Of a stretch of DNA of 5,268 bases, positions 1-5,268 are shown one piece after another. A model generated the notes under the pieces. That model did no database searches. It was not told where the DNA came from and saw only the letters and a list, made by a program, of their open reading frames with translations. Origin of the DNA: a virus (lineage: Duplodnaviria > Heunggongvirae > Uroviricota > Caudoviricetes); the IMG/VR virus record IMGVR_UViG_2541047928_000011. The stretch is one strand, 5' to 3'. Position 1 is the stretch's first letter, and the number at the start of each line of letters is the position of its first letter. Both the position numbers and the translations under genes were made by a program.

Positions 1-708
1 CTGCAGGCCGATCGCATTGCGATGATTACCCCGGAGAACGGCAACACCACGCCGCTGTTTGTGGCGCAGGGGAATCAGCTGTTCATGAACGACGTGTTCC
101 TGAAGCGACTGTTTGCGGTGAGCATCACGTCATCCGGCAATCCTCCGACGTTTTCCCTGACGCCGGATGGCAGGCTGACAGCCCGCAATGCGGATATCAG
201 TGGAGCCATCACGGCGAATACCGGCACGCTCAATAATGTCACCATTAACGAGAACTGTGTCATCAGAGGGAAACTGTCTGCAAACCAGATTGAAGGCGAT
301 CTCGTTAAAACAGTGGGTAAGGCTTTCCCCCGTGACTCCCGTGCACCGAAGCGTTGGCCATCAGGAACCATTACCGTCAGGGTTTATGACGATCAGCCGT
401 TTAACCGGCAGATTGTTATTCCGGCGGTGGCTTTCAGCGGTGCCAGACATGAGCGGGAGAACAGCGATACTTATTCGTCATGCCGCCTGATAGTGAAGAA
501 AAACGGTGCTGAAATTTATAACCGTACCGCGATGGATAATACGCTGGTTTACAGTGGTGTTATTGATATGCCTGCTGGTCGCGGCCACATGACGCTGGAG
601 TTTTCTGTATCAGCATGGTGGGTAAATGGCTGGTATCCCACAGCAAGTATCAGCGATTTGCTGGTTGTTGTGATGAAGAAAGCCACTGCAGGCATTACGA
701 TTAGCTGA
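1..708 (+). CDS. J: Central tail fibre / host-specificity protein J, C-terminal part (gene starts upstream of the window)
   Basis: Frame 1 is open from base 1 to TGA at 706-708, so the ORF is 5'-truncated by the window edge. Position directly upstream of lom and stf reproduces the lambda J-lom-stf order. The C-terminal residues (...[36 protein letters not shown]) match my recollection of the lambda gpJ receptor-binding end. No alignment could be run. Confidence 0.8.
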
Positions 709-775: not shown

Positions 776-1375
776 ATGCGTAAAGTTTGTGCAGCCATTT
801 TGTCCGCAGCCATCTGTCTGTCCGTATCCGGTGCGCCTGCATGGGCGTCTGAACATCAGTCCACACTGAGCACAGGGTATCTTCATGCCCGTACGAACGC
901 TCCCGGCAGCGATAATCTGAACGGGATTAACGTGAAATACCGTTATGAGTTTACGGACACGCTGGGGCTGGTGACGTCATTCAGTTATGCCAATGCCAAA
1001 GATGAGCAAAAAACGCATTACAGCGATACCCGCTGGCATGAAGATTCCGTGCGTAACCGCTGGTTCAGCGTGATGGCGGGGCCGTCTGTACGCGTGAATG
1101 AATGGTTCAGCGCGTATGCAATGGCGGGTATGGCTTACAGCCGAGTGTCGACCTTCTCCGGGGATTATCTCCGCGTAACTGACAACAAGGGGAAAACGCA
1201 CGATGTGCTGACCGGAAGTGATGACGGTCGCCACAGCAATACGTCTCTGGCGTGGGGGGCTGGCGTGCAGTTTAACCCGACCGAATCCGTGGCCATTGAT
1301 ATTGCTTATGAAGGCTCCGGCAGTGGTGACTGGCGCACTGACGGTTTCATCGTGGGGGTCGGTTATAAATTCTGA
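776..1375 (+). CDS. lom: Lom outer-membrane protein (Ail/Lom/OmpX/PagC family beta-barrel), lysogenic-conversion moron
   Basis: 199-aa ORF with RBS GAGAGG (765-770) 5 nt before ATG 776. N-terminal signal peptide MRKVCAAILSAAICLSVSGAPAWA with an AWA-S cleavage site and a C-terminal aromatic residue (…GYKF) typical of OM beta-barrels. Sequence matches lambda Lom as I recall it (SEHQSTLS…GINVKYRYEF…). Confidence 0.93.
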   Translation: MRKVCAAILSAAICLSVSGAPAWASEHQSTLSTGYLHARTNAPGSDNLNGINVKYRYEFTDTLGLVTSFSYANAKDEQKTHYSDTRWHEDSVRNRWFSVMAGPSVRVNEWFSAYAMAGMAYSRVSTFSGDYLRVTDNKGKTHDVLTGSDDGRHSNTSLAWGAGVQFNPTESVAIDIAYEGSGSGDWRTDGFIVGVGYKF

Positions 1376-1428: not shown

Positions 1429-1439
1429 GTGGAGTGGAT

Positions 1440-3506
1440 ATGGCAGCAGTAAAAATCTCAGGTGTGCTGAAAGATGGTGCGGGAAAACCAATACAGAACT
1501 GCACTATTCAGCTGAAGGCAAAGCGTAACAGCACCACGGTACTGGTGAACACGGTGGCCTCTGAAAATCCGGATGAAGCCGGGCGTTACAGCATGGATGT
1601 TGAGCATGGCCAGTACAGCGTCACCCTGCTGGTTGAAGGTTTTCCGCCTTCACATGCCGGGACCATTACCGTCTATGAAGGTTCCAGACCAGGTACGCTG
1701 AATGATTTTCTTGGTGCCATGACGGAGGATGATGCCCGTCCGGAGGCACTGCGCCGTTTTGAACTGATGGTGGAAGAAGCAGCACGCAACGCTGAAGCCG
1801 CCTCTCAGAGCGCAGCGGCGGCAAAGAAATCCGAAACTGCAGCGGCATCATCGAAGAACGCGGCGAAAACCTCAGAAACGAATGCAGCTAATAGTGCACA
1901 GGCGGCAGCGACCTCACAGACTGCATCAGCAAACTCCGCGACAGCAGCCAAAAAATCAGAAACCAGCGCGAAAAACAGCGAGACAGCCACAAAGGCCAGC
2001 GAAAAAAACGCAAAATCCAGCCAGACGGCAGCGAAAACCAGTGAGACGAATGCCAAAGACAGTGAAGCCAACGCAAAGGTGAGCGAAACAGCGGCGGCGA
2101 ACTCGGCGAAAGCATCGGCAGCAAGCCAGACGGCAGCAAAAGCAAGTGAAGATGCTGCCAGAGAATACGCAAACCAGACAGCAGAGCCGTACAGATATGT
2201 TTTACAGCCGCTGCCGGATGTGTGGATACCCTTTAATGATTCGCTGGATATGATTACGGGCTATTCTCCGGGTTATAAAAAAGTGAAGATTGGCGATAAT
2301 GTGGTTCAGGTTGCCAGTGATAAACAGGTTAATTTCAGTCGCGCATCAACGGCAACATATATCAACAAATCTGGCGAACTGAAAACGGCGGAAATTAATG
2401 AGCCGCGATTTGAGTGTGATGGCCTGCTTATTGAGGGACAAAGAACGAACTTCTTCCAGAACAGTACAGACCCTTCGAAGTGGAATAAGTCAACTTCACT
2501 GGACGTTACAGAAACAGGCACAGATAGTTTCGGGTTTAATTATGGTCGGTTTGTCGTACAGGATTCGATTGTTGGTACAAGTAAAGCGCATACCATTATC
2601 GGACTGTATTCGAGTACCGGAGGGGTTGATACTTCAGGGGACGAAAAGCATGTAACTATATCCTGTCGGGTAAAAAGTGAAGTTGATAATATCGCCGTTC
2701 GTATTTTATTTGAACATTATGATGGGGAGGTAAGGACATCAATAGGAGCAGCAAACCTGAACCTTACCACCCGCATAATTAGCAAGACAGGTCAGACAAG
2801 CCGTGTTACAGCAAGGTCTGTTAAGGATGATGCAACTGGCTGGATATTTTTTGAGGCTACATTAAAAGCAGATACAACAGAAAATACGGTTGGTGGTTTT
2901 GTCCAGTATTCTCCGGATACAGGGCAGATGGTTACATCAGGGGATTATCTCGATGTAACCACTCCACAGATTGAGGCTGGTACAGGCGCATCATCTTTTA
3001 TTGTTACGGGGACGGCACCGGCAACGCGGGCAAGCGATATGGTGACAGTCCCAATCAAGAATAACCTTTATAATCTTCCTTTTACGGTTCTTTGTGAGGT
3101 ACATAAGAACTGGTATAAAACGCCAAATGTAGCGCCGCGTGTTTTTGATACCGGCGGTCATCAAACCGGAGCGGGGATCGTAATGGGGTTTGGTTCATCA
3201 GGTGGGTACGACGGTTTTCCGTATTGCGATATAGGTGGTTCAGACCGACGAATAAATGAAAATGCCGGGCTGGAAAAAATGCTTATTGGTATGCGGGTAA
3301 AGTCCGAACGGTCCACATGTGTAGTCAGTAACGGTAAGTTAAGCAGCGAAACTAAAACCAAATGGGAATATATCCGGAGTACAGCAACCATTCGCATTGG
3401 TGGACAAACTACAGCAGGATTACGCCATTTATTTGGGCATGTGAGGAATTTTCGTCTCTGGCATAAAGAGCTAACAGATGCGCAGCTTGGGGAGGTTGTG
3501 GAGTGA
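1440..3506 (+). CDS. stf: Side tail fibre protein Stf, mosaic: lambda-like N-terminal domain, heptad-repeat shaft, divergent distal receptor-binding half
   Basis: ORF ends at TGA 3504-3506. The N-terminus (AVKISGVLKDGAGKPIQNCTIQLKAKRNSTT…GRYSMDVEHGQYSV…FPPSHAGTITVYE) matches recalled lambda Stf (orf-401). Start is set at ATG 1440 because GGAG (1431-1434) lies 5 nt upstream; the ORF-track start ATG 1434 has no RBS. The distal half (about 2200-3506) is visibly AT-richer and does not resemble lambda Stf as I recall it. Confidence 0.9.
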   Translation: MAAVKISGVLKDGAGKPIQNCTIQLKAKRNSTTVLVNTVASENPDEAGRYSMDVEHGQYSVTLLVEGFPPSHAGTITVYEGSRPGTLNDFLGAMTEDDARPEALRRFELMVEEAARNAEAASQSAAAAKKSETAAASSKNAAKTSETNAANSAQAAATSQTASANSATAAKKSETSAKNSETATKASEKNAKSSQTAAKTSETNAKDSEANAKVSETAAANSAKASAASQTAAKASEDAAREYANQTAEPYRYVLQPLPDVWIPFNDSLDMITGYSPGYKKVKIGDNVVQVASDKQVNFSRASTATYINKSGELKTAEINEPRFECDGLLIEGQRTNFFQNSTDPSKWNKSTSLDVTETGTDSFGFNYGRFVVQDSIVGTSKAHTIIGLYSSTGGVDTSGDEKHVTISCRVKSEVDNIAVRILFEHYDGEVRTSIGAANLNLTTRIISKTGQTSRVTARSVKDDATGWIFFEATLKADTTENTVGGFVQYSPDTGQMVTSGDYLDVTTPQIEAGTGASSFIVTGTAPATRASDMVTVPIKNNLYNLPFTVLCEVHKNWYKTPNVAPRVFDTGGHQTGAGIVMGFGSSGGYDGFPYCDIGGSDRRINENAGLEKMLIGMRVKSERSTCVVSNGKLSSETKTKWEYIRSTATIRIGGQTTAGLRHLFGHVRNFRLWHKELTDAQLGEVVE
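1794..2162 (+). repeat. Degenerate 21-bp tandem repeat array encoding about 17 heptads (x-A-A-K-x-S-E/Q) in the Stf shaft
   Basis: Protein residues about 121-243 parse cleanly into 7-residue units (AAAKKSE TAAASSK NAAKTSE TNAANSA … TAAKASE). The underlying DNA is A/G/C-rich low complexity, which also produces stop-free spurious ORFs on both strands. Confidence 0.7.
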
Positions 3507-3781
3507 GAGATTTCACGTTGCGTTTCAGTGATAAAGCAGATTTCAGGGCATTTCTCAGGAAACTTAACTGGGAAGAGGACGAAGAGCTGCAGAATGCCGT
3601 TCTGGTTGATGAGATTGGTTTTACGTTCAGGGAGACAGATGTTTCTGATGACGGAGAACCAGAATACACGCGAAACGAAGGGTACTTTGTTAATATCCGT
3701 CTTCTTGACGATGGATTTGAGGATTCCGTGTTCCGTGAGTGGGTGGTTACACCAGAGCGCCCGCTCAGGGAGTGGTTTTAA
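3503..3781 (+). CDS. Hypothetical small acidic protein (92 aa), translationally coupled to stf; possible fibre-specific chaperone or accessory factor
   Basis: GTG start at 3503 overlaps the stf stop (GTGA, 3503-3506). RBS GGGGAGG (3489-3495) lies inside the stf 3' end. Stop TAA 3779-3781. The protein is D/E-rich, has no hydrophobic segment, and has no family I recognise. Confidence 0.55.
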   Translation: MRDFTLRFSDKADFRAFLRKLNWEEDEELQNAVLVDEIGFTFRETDVSDDGEPEYTRNEGYFVNIRLLDDGFEDSVFREWVVTPERPLREWF

Positions 3782-3790
3782 GGATAGCAG

Positions 3791-4084
3791 ATGGATATCA
3801 CGTCGATACTTCATGCGCTTTGTGCCGTGGCGGTGCAGGTACTGGCTGGTCTTTTTACCGGAAACTGGGCTTACGGGGCGATAGCCGGTTGTACGTTCTT
3901 CATTGCGCGTGAACACACCCAGGCAGAATATCGCTGGATTAAGCGTTTTGGTGATGGTCACCGACATAAGATGCCGTGGTGGGGCGGTTTTGATCCACGT
4001 GCATGGGATGTGGCAAGCCTGATGGATTTTGCTGTGCCGGTGGTGGCGTGTCTGCTGGTCTGGCTGTTGGTTAATCGTGGGTGA
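3791..4084 (+). CDS. Hypothetical small membrane protein (97 aa, 2-3 predicted TM segments)
   Basis: RBS AAGGA (3780-3784) 6 nt before ATG 3791. A long N-terminal hydrophobic stretch (ITSILHALCAVAVQVLAGLFTGNWAYGAIAGCTFFIA) and a C-terminal hydrophobic helix (SLMDFAVPVVACLLVWLLV) flank a basic Trp-rich loop (RWIKRFGDGHRHKMPWWGGFDPRAW). Stop TGA 4082-4084. Confidence 0.55.
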   Translation: MDITSILHALCAVAVQVLAGLFTGNWAYGAIAGCTFFIAREHTQAEYRWIKRFGDGHRHKMPWWGGFDPRAWDVASLMDFAVPVVACLLVWLLVNRG

Positions 4085-4093
4085 AAAAGGTGA

Positions 4094-4222
4094 GCAGTAT
4101 ATGCAACGAAGGAGGAAACATCATTGCTGGCGGCATGGAAGGCATGCAGGGTGTTGCTGAACCGTGTTGATACATCAACTGCACCTGATATTGAGTGGCC
4201 TACGAACCCTGTCAGGGAGTAA
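4094..4222 (+). pseudogene. tfa: 3' remnant of a lambda-type tail fibre assembly gene (tfa), last ~40 codons only, no start codon
   Basis: In-frame translation gives …[39 protein letters not shown], which matches the recalled lambda Tfa C-terminus (…[34 protein letters not shown]…). In-frame stops at 4082 and 4091 precede it and the N-terminal ~150 codons of a full tfa are absent. Confidence 0.7.
4124..4200 (+). repeat. Direct repeat copy A (tfa 3'-end sequence), partner at 5173-5249
   Basis: Ungapped alignment at offset 1049 bp: 77 positions with 10 mismatches counted by eye, and a 38-bp perfectly identical core (4163-4200 = 5212-5249, CGTGTTGATACATCAACTGCACCTGATATTGAGTGGCC). Confidence 0.85.
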
Positions 4223-4236
4223 TCATTGGGATTATG

Positions 4237-4269
4237 CCGCAGCACGTCTTAAGCAAGAACGTGCTGCGG
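4237..4269. other. Perfect 11-bp inverted repeat (stem-loop) between convergent genes
   Basis: CCGCAGCACGT (4237-4247) and ACGTGCTGCGG (4259-4269) are exact reverse complements around an 11-nt loop. No U-tract is directly adjacent on either strand, so it is not a canonical intrinsic terminator. It sits in the 54-bp gap between the tfa stub (ends 4222) and the minus-strand gene (ends 4277). Confidence 0.4.
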
Positions 4270-4276
4270 TTGGATG

Positions 4277-4933
4277 CTATTTTTTCCCTGAAGCGGAAAA
4301 CATTACTACAGTACCTTGAATCTTGGTTTTAACATTCTCGAAATGCTCTGAGAGTATATGTGTTAAGCCTTCTTCGGAATCTTTTGTGTTTGAAAAGATG
4401 CCTTTCTGATTGTAAATGCGCATCAGTTTTTGACCGAAGCTATTGTGCACAACGCCGTCACCAAGAATTGTGGCTCCGTATAGAGTTCCATCGTCAGTTA
4501 AGGCCTGCGCCGCATTGCGTATTACACAGCTTTTTGTAGATATATTTCCAGGCAGGCAGTGAAGAAGGTAAAACATGGAAATGGAATCAAATTGACCATG
4601 TAACGCCGCGGGATAAGGATCAAAAACATCATGGCTAATTTTATGTTTAATTTTTGATTCCCCAGCCCTTGTCGATGCCGCGTTCAGGCTAGCTTCGTTC
4701 AAATCCATTAAAGATATCAGACTACTCTCAGGTACGTGAGTAAGGTAAAACCCAGTTCCAACGCCAATATCCAGATGGTTGTTACCTAAATGTTCCAGAA
4801 AGTGTGGAAGAAGGTGTTCCTTTGTAGGACATCCCCATGCAAGCCGATTTGATACTCCCAAAACCCACCAGTCATAAAGCTTTAGGGTAAGTGGTGTGTA
4901 AATTTTAGCCCCATCATCTGTGTTTTTTTTCAT
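4277..4933 (-). CDS. Class I (Rossmann-fold) SAM-dependent methyltransferase-like protein, small-molecule/RNA/protein type rather than DNA MTase
   Basis: Recognisable motifs: motif I LDIGVGTG, a post-I acidic residue (…ISLMDLNE), motif II GQFDSISMFYLLHCLP, motif III LTDDGTLYG. No DPPY/NPPY catalytic motif in the right context and no target-recognition domain. The region is markedly AT-rich compared with J/lom. Start is set at ATG 4933 (GGTGA 5 nt upstream); the ORF-track start GTG 4942 has no RBS. Stop TAG 4277-4279. Confidence 0.8.
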   Translation of the reverse strand: MKKNTDDGAKIYTPLTLKLYDWWVLGVSNRLAWGCPTKEHLLPHFLEHLGNNHLDIGVGTGFYLTHVPESSLISLMDLNEASLNAASTRAGESKIKHKISHDVFDPYPAALHGQFDSISMFYLLHCLPGNISTKSCVIRNAAQALTDDGTLYGATILGDGVVHNSFGQKLMRIYNQKGIFSNTKDSEEGLTHILSEHFENVKTKIQGTVVMFSASGKK

Positions 4934-4945
4934 TAGTTTCACCGT

Positions 4946-4974
4946 ATTATAGTTTTATTTGTGAATTAAATCAA
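4946..4974 (-). promoter_or_regulatory. Candidate sigma70 promoter for the methyltransferase-like gene
   Basis: On the minus strand: -35 TTGATT (plus 4974-4969), a 17-nt spacer, and a perfect -10 TATAAT (plus 4951-4946). The -10 ends only about 13 nt upstream of ATG 4933, implying a very short or absent leader. Confidence 0.5.
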
Positions 4975-5001
4975 TTATGGCGATGAATTACAAGGGGTTA
5001 A

Positions 5002-5268
5002 ATGCTGCCGCAGCATAGCGATATTGAAATAGCCTGGTATGCTTCGATACAGCAGGAGCCGAATGGCTGGAAGACCGTCACCACACAGTTCTACATCCAG
5101 GAATTCAGTGAGTATATTGCGCCACTGCAGGATGCTGTAGATCTGGAAATCGCAACGGAGGAAGAAAGATCGTTGCTGGAGGCATGGAATAAATATCGGG
5201 TATTGTTGAATCGTGTTGATACATCAACTGCACCTGATATTGAGTGGCCGACTTCACCTGCAGAGTAA
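5002..5268 (+). CDS. Small Tfa-like protein (88 aa) carrying only the conserved C-terminal Tfa domain (tail fibre assembly family)
   Basis: RBS AAGGGG (4992-4997) before ATG 5002; stop TAA 5266-5268 at the window end. The C-terminal ~50 aa ([47 protein letters not shown]) match the recalled lambda Tfa C-terminus; the N-terminal ~36 aa are unrelated and far shorter than a full Tfa N-domain. Confidence 0.7.
5173..5249 (+). repeat. Direct repeat copy B (tfa 3'-end sequence), partner at 4124-4200
   Basis: See copy A: same orientation, 1049 bp apart, 38-bp identical core 5212-5249. Confidence 0.85.

Follow-up and report, generated by a model that had tools for sequence, protein, structure and literature searches.

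An intact ybcY-type methyltransferase gene carried as a moron by a lambda-like prophage, at its right end

The closest described counterpart of the gene studied here is found in E. coli K-12. In the MG1655 annotation of DLP12, the order is tfaD, ybcY (a pseudogene on the opposite strand) and tfaX. The spacer between ybcY and tfaX is bound in vitro by RpoD holoenzyme alone; the same work assigns TTGATT-17-TATAAC as the ybcY promoter and marks the spacer as an H-NS site (Shimada et al., PMC3946193). In the literature we searched, ybcY occurred in gene lists only, its CFT073 form c0651 appeared in one microarray table, and a functional study was not found.

The second point of reference is the lambdoid moron, as defined from HK97 and HK022 (Juhala et al. 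2000, as far as relayed by bioRxiv 10.1101/2024.10.15.618418). Like ybcY, the classical lambdoid morons (lom and bor of lambda, and those of HK97 and HK022) are single genes of atypical composition with their own promoter-like and hairpin elements. Both they and ybcY are inserted in the late region, and both vary in presence from one related phage to another. Unlike them, ybcY lies antisense to the late operon, and its unit is also found on plasmids and at chromosomal sites.

Here we describe a ybcY-type gene in a stretch of viral DNA of 5,268 nucleotides (the window). Over the 1169 bases searched (positions 4100-5268), it is 100% identical to E. coli CUVET18-565, where these bases form the right end of a lambda-like prophage. 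This prophage adjoins potB and ends directly after the second of two tfa fragments, and RefSeq labels the gene at the identical locus a class I SAM-dependent methyltransferase (WP_001538613.1). The genes and fragments of the window are as follows.

22-708, plus strand: 3' end of J (C-terminus; GC 0.521, GC3 0.590)
776-1375, plus strand: lom (GC 0.545, GC3 0.595)
1434-3506, plus strand: tail fibre gene (stf), 690 aa, with phage_tail_N and GTA_spike_fiber domains
3503-3781, plus strand: small ORF, PHROG 1361
3791-4084, plus strand: small ORF, PHROG 1443
4103-4222, plus strand: tfa 3' fragment of 39 codons, left direct-repeat copy; 'tail fiber assembly protein, incomplete, missing N-terminus' in RefSeq
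4277-4933, minus strand: ybcY-type methyltransferase CDS, ATG start, 218 aa; PHROG 2132; WP_001538613.1
5002-5268, plus strand: TfaX-like ORF, 88 aa; PHROG 2341; Pfam Caudo_TAP, positions 75-131 of 131

An earlier note on this DNA had pointed to a tfa-methyltransferase-tfa arrangement in K-12. That arrangement exists, and K-12 ybcY (b0562) is 98% identical in DNA over the gene and both flanks; this identity makes the window gene an intact allele of ybcY. The two loci also share the upstream spacer and the order of tfa, a methyltransferase on the opposite strand, and tfaX. They differ in three respects. In K-12 the ATG has become ATA, which makes a run of nine A's from which two bases were then lost, and this 2-bp loss causes a frameshift that closes the frame after eight codons. 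The K-12 -10 element is TATAAC, whereas that of the window is TATAAT. Finally, the K-12 prophage lies at argU and that of the window copy at potB.

The tfa-methyltransferase-tfa layout of the window held up, with the correction that both tfa sequences are 3' fragments rather than genes. Residues 31-87 of the TfaX-like ORF (its last 57) correspond to the C-terminus of Tfa, and this part makes up the right direct-repeat copy (5152-5252). Its first ~30 codons run antisense to a DinI-like remnant, and RefSeq annotates a partial tfa at 5095-5268. The direct repeat (D1) thus formed by the two tfa ends is 101 nt long (4103-4203 vs 5152-5252, 85% identity). A search of the 5.3-kb window for RNA elements, tRNAs and tandem repeats found none.

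J, lom, stf and the tfa fragments are all on the plus strand and the methyltransferase gene is on the minus strand, in agreement with the proposal that it opposes the late operon. An alternative in-frame GTG at 4942 gives an ORF of 221 aa (4277-4942), three codons longer, but RefSeq begins the gene at the ATG, and orthologues conserve that start. The reading frame runs without interruption and every invariant residue of the family is present. The copy is therefore intact, as had been suggested, although intactness proved to be ordinary in E. coli.

The gene was also said to be distinctly AT-rich, and comparison with its neighbours bore this out. Its GC content is 0.414, against 0.521 in J, 0.545 in lom and 0.487 in the whole window; GC3 stands at 0.370, where J and lom have 0.59. 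The AT-richness is genuine but is shared, within the window, by the C-terminal (receptor-binding) half of the tail fibre gene, which has a similarly low GC of 0.450 and GC3 of 0.389.

Two further features concern the extent of the gene as a unit.

4236-4269, either strand: strong hairpin with a stem of 11-15 bp, flanked by the stop codons of the tfa fragment and the methyltransferase (RNA fold)
~4265 to ~5002, minus strand: portable unit of ~730 bp, comprising ~70 bp upstream, the CDS and a few bases past the stop (blastn to non-phage copies)

The hairpin folds at -31.7 kcal/mol on the plus strand (z -4.3) and at -23.9 kcal/mol on the minus strand (z -5.4), and probably terminates the convergent tfa-fragment and methyltransferase transcripts or forms their RNA end. 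On the methyltransferase strand of this window a U-tract after the hairpin is absent, and a consensus terminator scan found no terminator; in two sister loci (L021 and L023) the same hairpin is followed by TTTTT.

The limits of the unit were seen by blastn against copies outside phages. Salmonella plasmid loci matched window positions 5002 to 4271 at 87%, Citrobacter matched 5088 to 4265 at 92%, and Enterobacter and C. braakii matched 4995 to 4328 at 69-72%. Across several genera, the ybcY unit turns up in phages, on plasmids and in chromosomes. Its orthologues at 56-89% identity are spread through the Enterobacterales and extend to Pasteurellaceae, and an exhaustive profile search gave 411 clusters (50% identity; E <1e-30), with a range extending to Acidobacteria and Aspergillus. 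The gene lies in chromosomes of Enterobacter, Erwinia and Salmonella, in an islet in Yersinia, and where an integrase island ends in Testudinibacter; Citrobacter has it in a prophage remnant that bears sodC and in the purB-hflD-mnmA region, and Salmonella also on plasmid contigs rich in ccdAB and IS elements. No gene is shared between these contexts, and the copies in Enterobacter, Erwinia, Salmonella, Yersinia, Citrobacter and Testudinibacter are monocistronic, among unrelated genes. Its GC is 0.38-0.41 in all copies from E. coli, Citrobacter, Enterobacter, Testudinibacter and Salmonella plasmids, and higher in the chromosomal copies of Yersinia (0.43), Salmonella (0.47) and Erwinia (0.56). 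With this composition, and with a unit of ~70 bp plus the CDS that recurs on a Salmonella plasmid and in Citrobacter and Enterobacter chromosomes, the gene behaves as a moron, as had been claimed. ybcY is a genuine moron, and one already known.

The region upstream of the gene contains the following elements.

4934-5001, no strand: divergent spacer of 68 bp, 28% GC by composition, which separates the methyltransferase from the TfaX-like ORF; its K-12 homologue is the type-A spacer listed for RpoD and H-NS
4939-4943, minus strand: Shine-Dalgarno-like GGTGA, 5 nt upstream of the ATG (alignment of 15 upstream regions from several genera)
4946-4974, minus strand: sigma-70 promoter-like TTGATT-17-TATAAT (-35 at 4974-4969, -10 at 4951-4946; 10/12 in the consensus scan)
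4974-5001, minus strand: weaker alternative promoter-like TTAACC-16-CATAAT (9/12 in the consensus scan; partly conserved upstream of orthologues)

TTGATT-17-TATAAT is the sole sigma-70 match of at least 10/12 on both strands of the 5.3-kb window, where about one 10/12 site is expected by chance; the chance of such a site on the methyltransferase strand within the 127 nt upstream is P ~0.04. Across 15 aligned loci, the -35 element and most of the promoter block are kept with the gene from genus to genus. Even in an Enterobacter copy at 64% amino-acid identity, TTGATT, a TATAAC/T region and AAGGTGA before the ATG are still recognisable. AAGGTGA stands at the Shine-Dalgarno-like position in most orthologues, and such an element is complementary to the 3' end of 16S rRNA.

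The earlier note had called this promoter strong and near-consensus. The second description stands, with 10 of 12 positions; the first is not supported. The -10 (4951-4946) lies only 2 nt upstream of the Shine-Dalgarno-like GGTGA (4943-4939), so that transcription starting ~7 nt downstream would yield a leader of just 5-7 nt that lacks the Shine-Dalgarno element. The alternative TTAACC-16-CATAAT site, further upstream, would give a normal leader of ~34 nt with that element included. Because the best -10 abuts the Shine-Dalgarno-like element, the actual transcription start is uncertain. By analogy with the K-12 spacer, binding by RpoD and H-NS fits an AT-rich foreign gene with a constitutive-type promoter under silencing.

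We then considered the protein. The profile search against methyltransferase families that had been named as a check returned three Pfam families above their cut-offs: Methyltransf_12 (37.5 bits, cut-off 30), Methyltransf_23 (28.7, cut-off 27) and Methyltransf_11 (24.4, cut-off 21.2). PHROG 2132, annotated as 'unknown function', matched over the full length (positions 1-218 of 218, E 2.8e-156). Among 35 orthologues, 59 columns are invariant. Motif I, LDIGVGTG at residues 54-61 (L54, D55, G57, G59 and G61 among them), is invariant among orthologues, as is D102 among the same 35, and D77 is invariant in 81 sequences. D77 occupies the acidic position at the end of strand 2, where the corresponding residue of class I methyltransferases binds the ribose of SAM. 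An AlphaFold2 model built on the 35 orthologues (pLDDT 91.3, pTM 0.88) predicts the seven-stranded beta-sheet and Rossmann-like fold by which class I methyltransferases are recognised.

The protein sequence contains no [DNS]PP[YFW], no C5 PC/ENV motif and no target-recognition domain, for which a single domain of 218 aa has no space, and no DNA-methyltransferase family matched it in Pfam and NCBIfam searches. We also found no transmembrane segment, no polar-to-hydrophobic signal sequence and no nucleic-acid-binding domain. As had been proposed from its motifs, motif and family evidence supports the assignment of the predicted product to the class I SAM-dependent methyltransferases of small-molecule type, and not to the DNA methyltransferases. 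The product is probably functional.

Taken jointly, an intact ybcY moron, a partner-free class I methyltransferase of small-molecule type, and leftward sigma-70 transcription damped by H-NS make up the explanation that we prefer, with a probability of roughly 0.75. The intact ybcY would be a self-contained moron at the right end of the lambda-like prophage, lodged between two tfa 3' ends. Its transcription would run leftward, not depend on the late operon, and start at a sigma-70 promoter within the 28%-GC spacer; to judge by the K-12 spacer, H-NS probably damps this promoter. The product would be a soluble, cytoplasmic, single-domain Rossmann-fold enzyme of small-molecule type, and, since no partner gene is conserved, it may act alone. 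With SAM as donor, it would methylate O, N or S of a metabolite, xenobiotic or lipid head group common in enterobacteria.

We looked for leads to the substrate among characterised enzymes. The closest by profile were CysG/BelI (hhalign of the 81-sequence family profile, probability 97.3%, E 5.5e-11), and sequence and profile searches of the PDB also gave CysG/BelI as the best match, at E 1.4e-5 and over the SAM-binding core only. CysG and BelI, O-methyltransferases that depend on Ca2+, esterify 3-alkylmalates, for example 3-isopropylmalate, at the C1 carboxylate (PDB 9FCD, 9FCE; PMC11408123). In the hhalign alignment, the invariant H125 and near-invariant C126 stand opposite the CysG/BelI metal ligands His122 and His123. 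The equivalents of CysG/BelI Arg22, which binds the substrate, and of Asp191, which completes the His-His-Asp metal-binding motif, fall in poorly aligned or gapped regions; an invariant D185 is in the same lid segment. The ybcY product differs from CysG/BelI in that identity is ~17%, the second putative ligand is Cys rather than His, and no beta-lactone biosynthetic cluster surrounds the gene.

The next lead was the juvenile-hormone-acid O-methyltransferase, and weak BioC matches were seen in 56 of the 81 family members; both agree with the direction given by CysG/BelI. NodS, XrdM, PmtA, UbiG and UbiE also ranked at about equal scores. Every match to a characterised enzyme, by structure or by sequence, was at 11-21% identity, and O-, N-, C- and S-methyltransferases stood side by side without a clear leader; Foldseek against the PDB and against viral models likewise gave a flat ranking, and no NCBIfam family came near its cut-off for the window protein or its 81 relatives. 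Two other routes were tried and set aside. A methyl-ester/esterase pair had been suggested by alpha/beta hydrolases near the gene in ev243, Enterobacter and Erwinia, but this is coincidence, because the three hydrolases are mutually unrelated (BLASTP E 0.87) and belong to different Pfam families: TAP-like Abhydrolase_4, Abhydrolase_1/Hydrolase_4, and COesterase. Domain fusions were uninformative as well: the longer family members (302-743 aa) carried no informative second Pfam domain, bar one eukaryote-like RCC1 fusion.

E. coli has standalone class I methyltransferases that act on stray or toxic small molecules, namely Tam (trans-aconitate methyltransferase) and TehB. By analogy with these, we suggest, with low confidence, a partner-free cytoplasmic enzyme acting on a common small molecule, a carboxylic acid being the first guess. 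No specific sequence relationship of the ybcY product to Tam or TehB was found, and the likeness is one of analogy. A bolder proposal, to which we give little credence, is that YbcY is a domesticated prophage enzyme with chemistry new to E. coli that brings the lysogen a fitness gain and has been overlooked through the K-12 pseudogene. Such chemistry would be, for example, metal-assisted (His-Cys-Asp) O-methylation of a common carboxylic-acid metabolite or of a toxin derived from the gut, or methylation of an envelope lipid.

The nature of the substrate is also where the main alternative lies. Were the product an RNA or protein methyltransferase, with rRNA, tRNA or a translation factor, for example, as its target, it could tune host translation or give the lysogen tolerance to ribosome-targeting compounds. 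The family median pI of 8.8 would suit such an anionic macromolecule, whereas the pI of the window protein is 6.9; pI was therefore ambiguous as a discriminator between small-molecule and RNA substrates. The product is, besides, a bare catalytic domain of 218 aa without an RNA-binding extension, and matches to RNA or protein methyltransferases were fewer and weaker than those to small-molecule ones, the best profiles being CysG/BelI, NodS, XrdM and JHAMT. We regard a macromolecular substrate as unlikely.

A phospholipid N-methyltransferase like PmtA would turn the phosphatidylethanolamine (PE) in the membrane of the lysogen into methylated PE or phosphatidylcholine, which would amount to lysogenic conversion of its envelope. 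The top Foldseek match in the PDB was the PmtA of R. thermophilum (8ys9; E 8.7e-12, TM 0.62-0.67), a protein of equal size, Legionella-type PmtA was the best NCBIfam match of the window protein, and PE, abundant in every enterobacterium, fits a partner-free enzyme. That NCBIfam match (NF045882), however, scored 17.8 bits where 390 are needed, and the structural likeness was no better than for many other methyltransferases, which leaves this activity very improbable.

Another possibility is that the gene is a decaying, functionless passenger, unbroken here by chance. Dead copies exist in K-12, with its 2-bp loss at the start, and in O157:H7 TR01, with a frameshift, and ybcY is surrounded by fragments of tfa, DinI and integrase genes. 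The loss of the gene by mutation in K-12 and in at least one O157:H7 strain does indicate that it is dispensable in some lineages. Yet dN/dS was 0.09-0.24 against copies at 64-99% amino-acid identity (the exception being a near-identical pair with three differences), and the protein is under purifying selection. Orthologues at only 56-69% identity are conserved in Enterobacterales and beyond.

The state of the gene in E. coli argues in the same direction. Using a 90-nt probe across the promoter and start, we found the start region of ybcY in 3820 of 5426 complete E. coli genomes (~70%). The K-12 form with its 2-bp loss was matched at 99% or more in only ~379 records; the matches in other genomes span the 90 nt undeleted. 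Eleven non-K-12 loci were then taken at even steps along the probe ranking. Ten are annotated as intact, O157:H7 TR01 being the frameshifted exception, although their neighbours have mostly decayed: partial tfa, tail-fibre, integrase and DinI sequences and IS elements, often beside ompT. In E. coli the gene is usually intact, and K-12 departs from the rule.

Active phages (ev243, 2G7b and the PhiR series) carry a ybcY-type gene, too; in all, only 15 of 50,697 phage records have one, Kati and Turner among them. In ev243 (gp26), 2G7b and PhiR26_1 it is 98-99% identical in amino acids to the window copy and likewise follows the tail-fibre module on the opposite strand. The order at the two loci examined, ev243 and PhiR26_1, is J, lom, stf and, further on, the methyltransferase, a tfa fragment, a hydrolase and ompT, with int next in ev243. 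Unlike these phages, where an alpha/beta hydrolase, ompT and int come after the methyltransferase, the prophage here ends after the second tfa fragment. Against this background, a functionless passenger is hardly credible.

There is a negligible chance that the product methylates DNA or belongs to a system of anti-phage defence or counter-defence: prophage cargo near a tail-fibre hotspot, a frequent site of defence genes, and the only PADLOC match, a faint one to mad2 (E 0.0044, 13.9 bits), would point that way, but the match is at noise level and covers the generic SAM-binding core only, no partner gene was found beside ybcY, and there is no DPPY/NPPY or C5-methyltransferase motif and no DNA-methyltransferase Pfam family.

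The existence of ybcY and its moron-like layout are already catalogued in RefSeq, in PHROG 2132 and as K-12 ybcY. Novelty is low, because public annotation already covers the gene and its K-12 counterpart as well as its family and position, and intact copies are usual, and specialists in phage or E. coli genomics will find no surprise here. The point of interest is rather that the laboratory strain has the broken exception, in a species where ~70% of complete genomes have the gene and sampled copies are mostly intact. That so widespread and selected a gene has no known substrate is probably due to the dead allele of the reference strain. With no close characterised relative, ybcY is a reasonable and cheap target for substrate discovery among the 'y-genes' of E. 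coli.

In prophage remnants the gene has been kept whole where nearly all else, bar ompT, has decayed. In UPEC 82.0311 and in TUM11352, the DLP12-like element consists of a tRNA-Arg, an integrase fragment, a tfa fragment, the intact methyltransferase gene and ompT.

Two inactivated copies of ybcY have a predisposing change in common. K-12 ybcY, in the DLP12 prophage, and the copy in E. coli O157:H7 TR01 have an ATG to ATA change at the start of the gene in common, and this change creates a homopolymer of nine A's there. In K-12, two A's were subsequently lost from this run, an apparent slippage, and in O157:H7 TR01 the frameshift lies at another site. The two genes were inactivated separately, by two events on one common predisposing allele. 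Elsewhere the gene outlasts its prophage: in UPEC 82.0311 and TUM11352, all that is left of a DLP12-like element at argU is an integrase fragment, a tfa fragment, an intact methyltransferase and ompT, so that the methyltransferase and ompT are the sole survivors of that prophage. The family also has a member in the fungus Aspergillus wentii (profile E 4.9e-65, ~44% identity to the window protein), equal in length to the window methyltransferase. Its membership is a hint that this methyltransferase gene has passed between kingdoms.

Between the convergent tfa fragment and methyltransferase lies a very stable hairpin at 4236-4269 (z-scores relative to shuffled sequences, -4.3 and -5.4). A T6 run stands 9 nt beyond it on the plus strand. 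The minus strand has no U-tract behind the hairpin in the window, but in E. coli S42 and O157:H7 TR01 the same hairpin has TTTTT after it; the segment beyond the hairpin has apparently been swapped through recombination with tfa. One annotated ORF spans the hairpin and overlaps the 3' end of the opposite-strand methyltransferase, and this annotation is almost certainly spurious:
4195-4332, plus strand, 45-aa ORF, RefSeq 'nucleocapsid protein' (WP_071591511.1)

Two features overlap at the right end of the window:
5002-5268, plus strand, TfaX-like ORF of 88 aa, PHROG 2341
5005-5100, minus strand, DinI-family N-terminal remnant, from RefSeq annotation in three sister loci (L025, L028, L031)

The final 57 residues of the TfaX-like ORF are a Tfa C-terminus, and the DinI-family remnant lies on the strand opposite to its first ~30 codons. 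The ORF looks chimeric in make-up and may not be a genuine gene. The prophage ends at most ~230 bp past this second tfa fragment, adjoining potB, which is annotated there as an 864-bp gene, just outside the window end (13170-13400 in the CUVET18-565 locus). The same end next to potB is seen in an unrelated strain (L031), which suggests that the potB 3' end serves as an integration site for prophages.

The position behind a tail fibre gene is usually occupied by a full tfa. In the window and in phage ev243, two small ORFs lie directly 3' of a 690-aa GTA_spike_fiber-type tail fibre:
3503-3781, plus strand, 92-aa ORF, PHROG 1361, 'unknown function'
3791-4084, plus strand, 97-aa ORF, PHROG 1443, 'unknown function'

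Neither ORF has a Pfam match, and the two may be chaperone or accessory proteins belonging to this type of fibre. The tail fibre gene itself (1434-3506, plus strand) is a mosaic in composition, with a GC of 0.54 in its N-terminal third against 0.45 in the remainder. No DNA-level tandem repeat was detected in it; its Ala/Ser/Lys-rich segment (AAKxSE-like) shows an extreme AT skew, up to 0.69, notably at 1750-2150.
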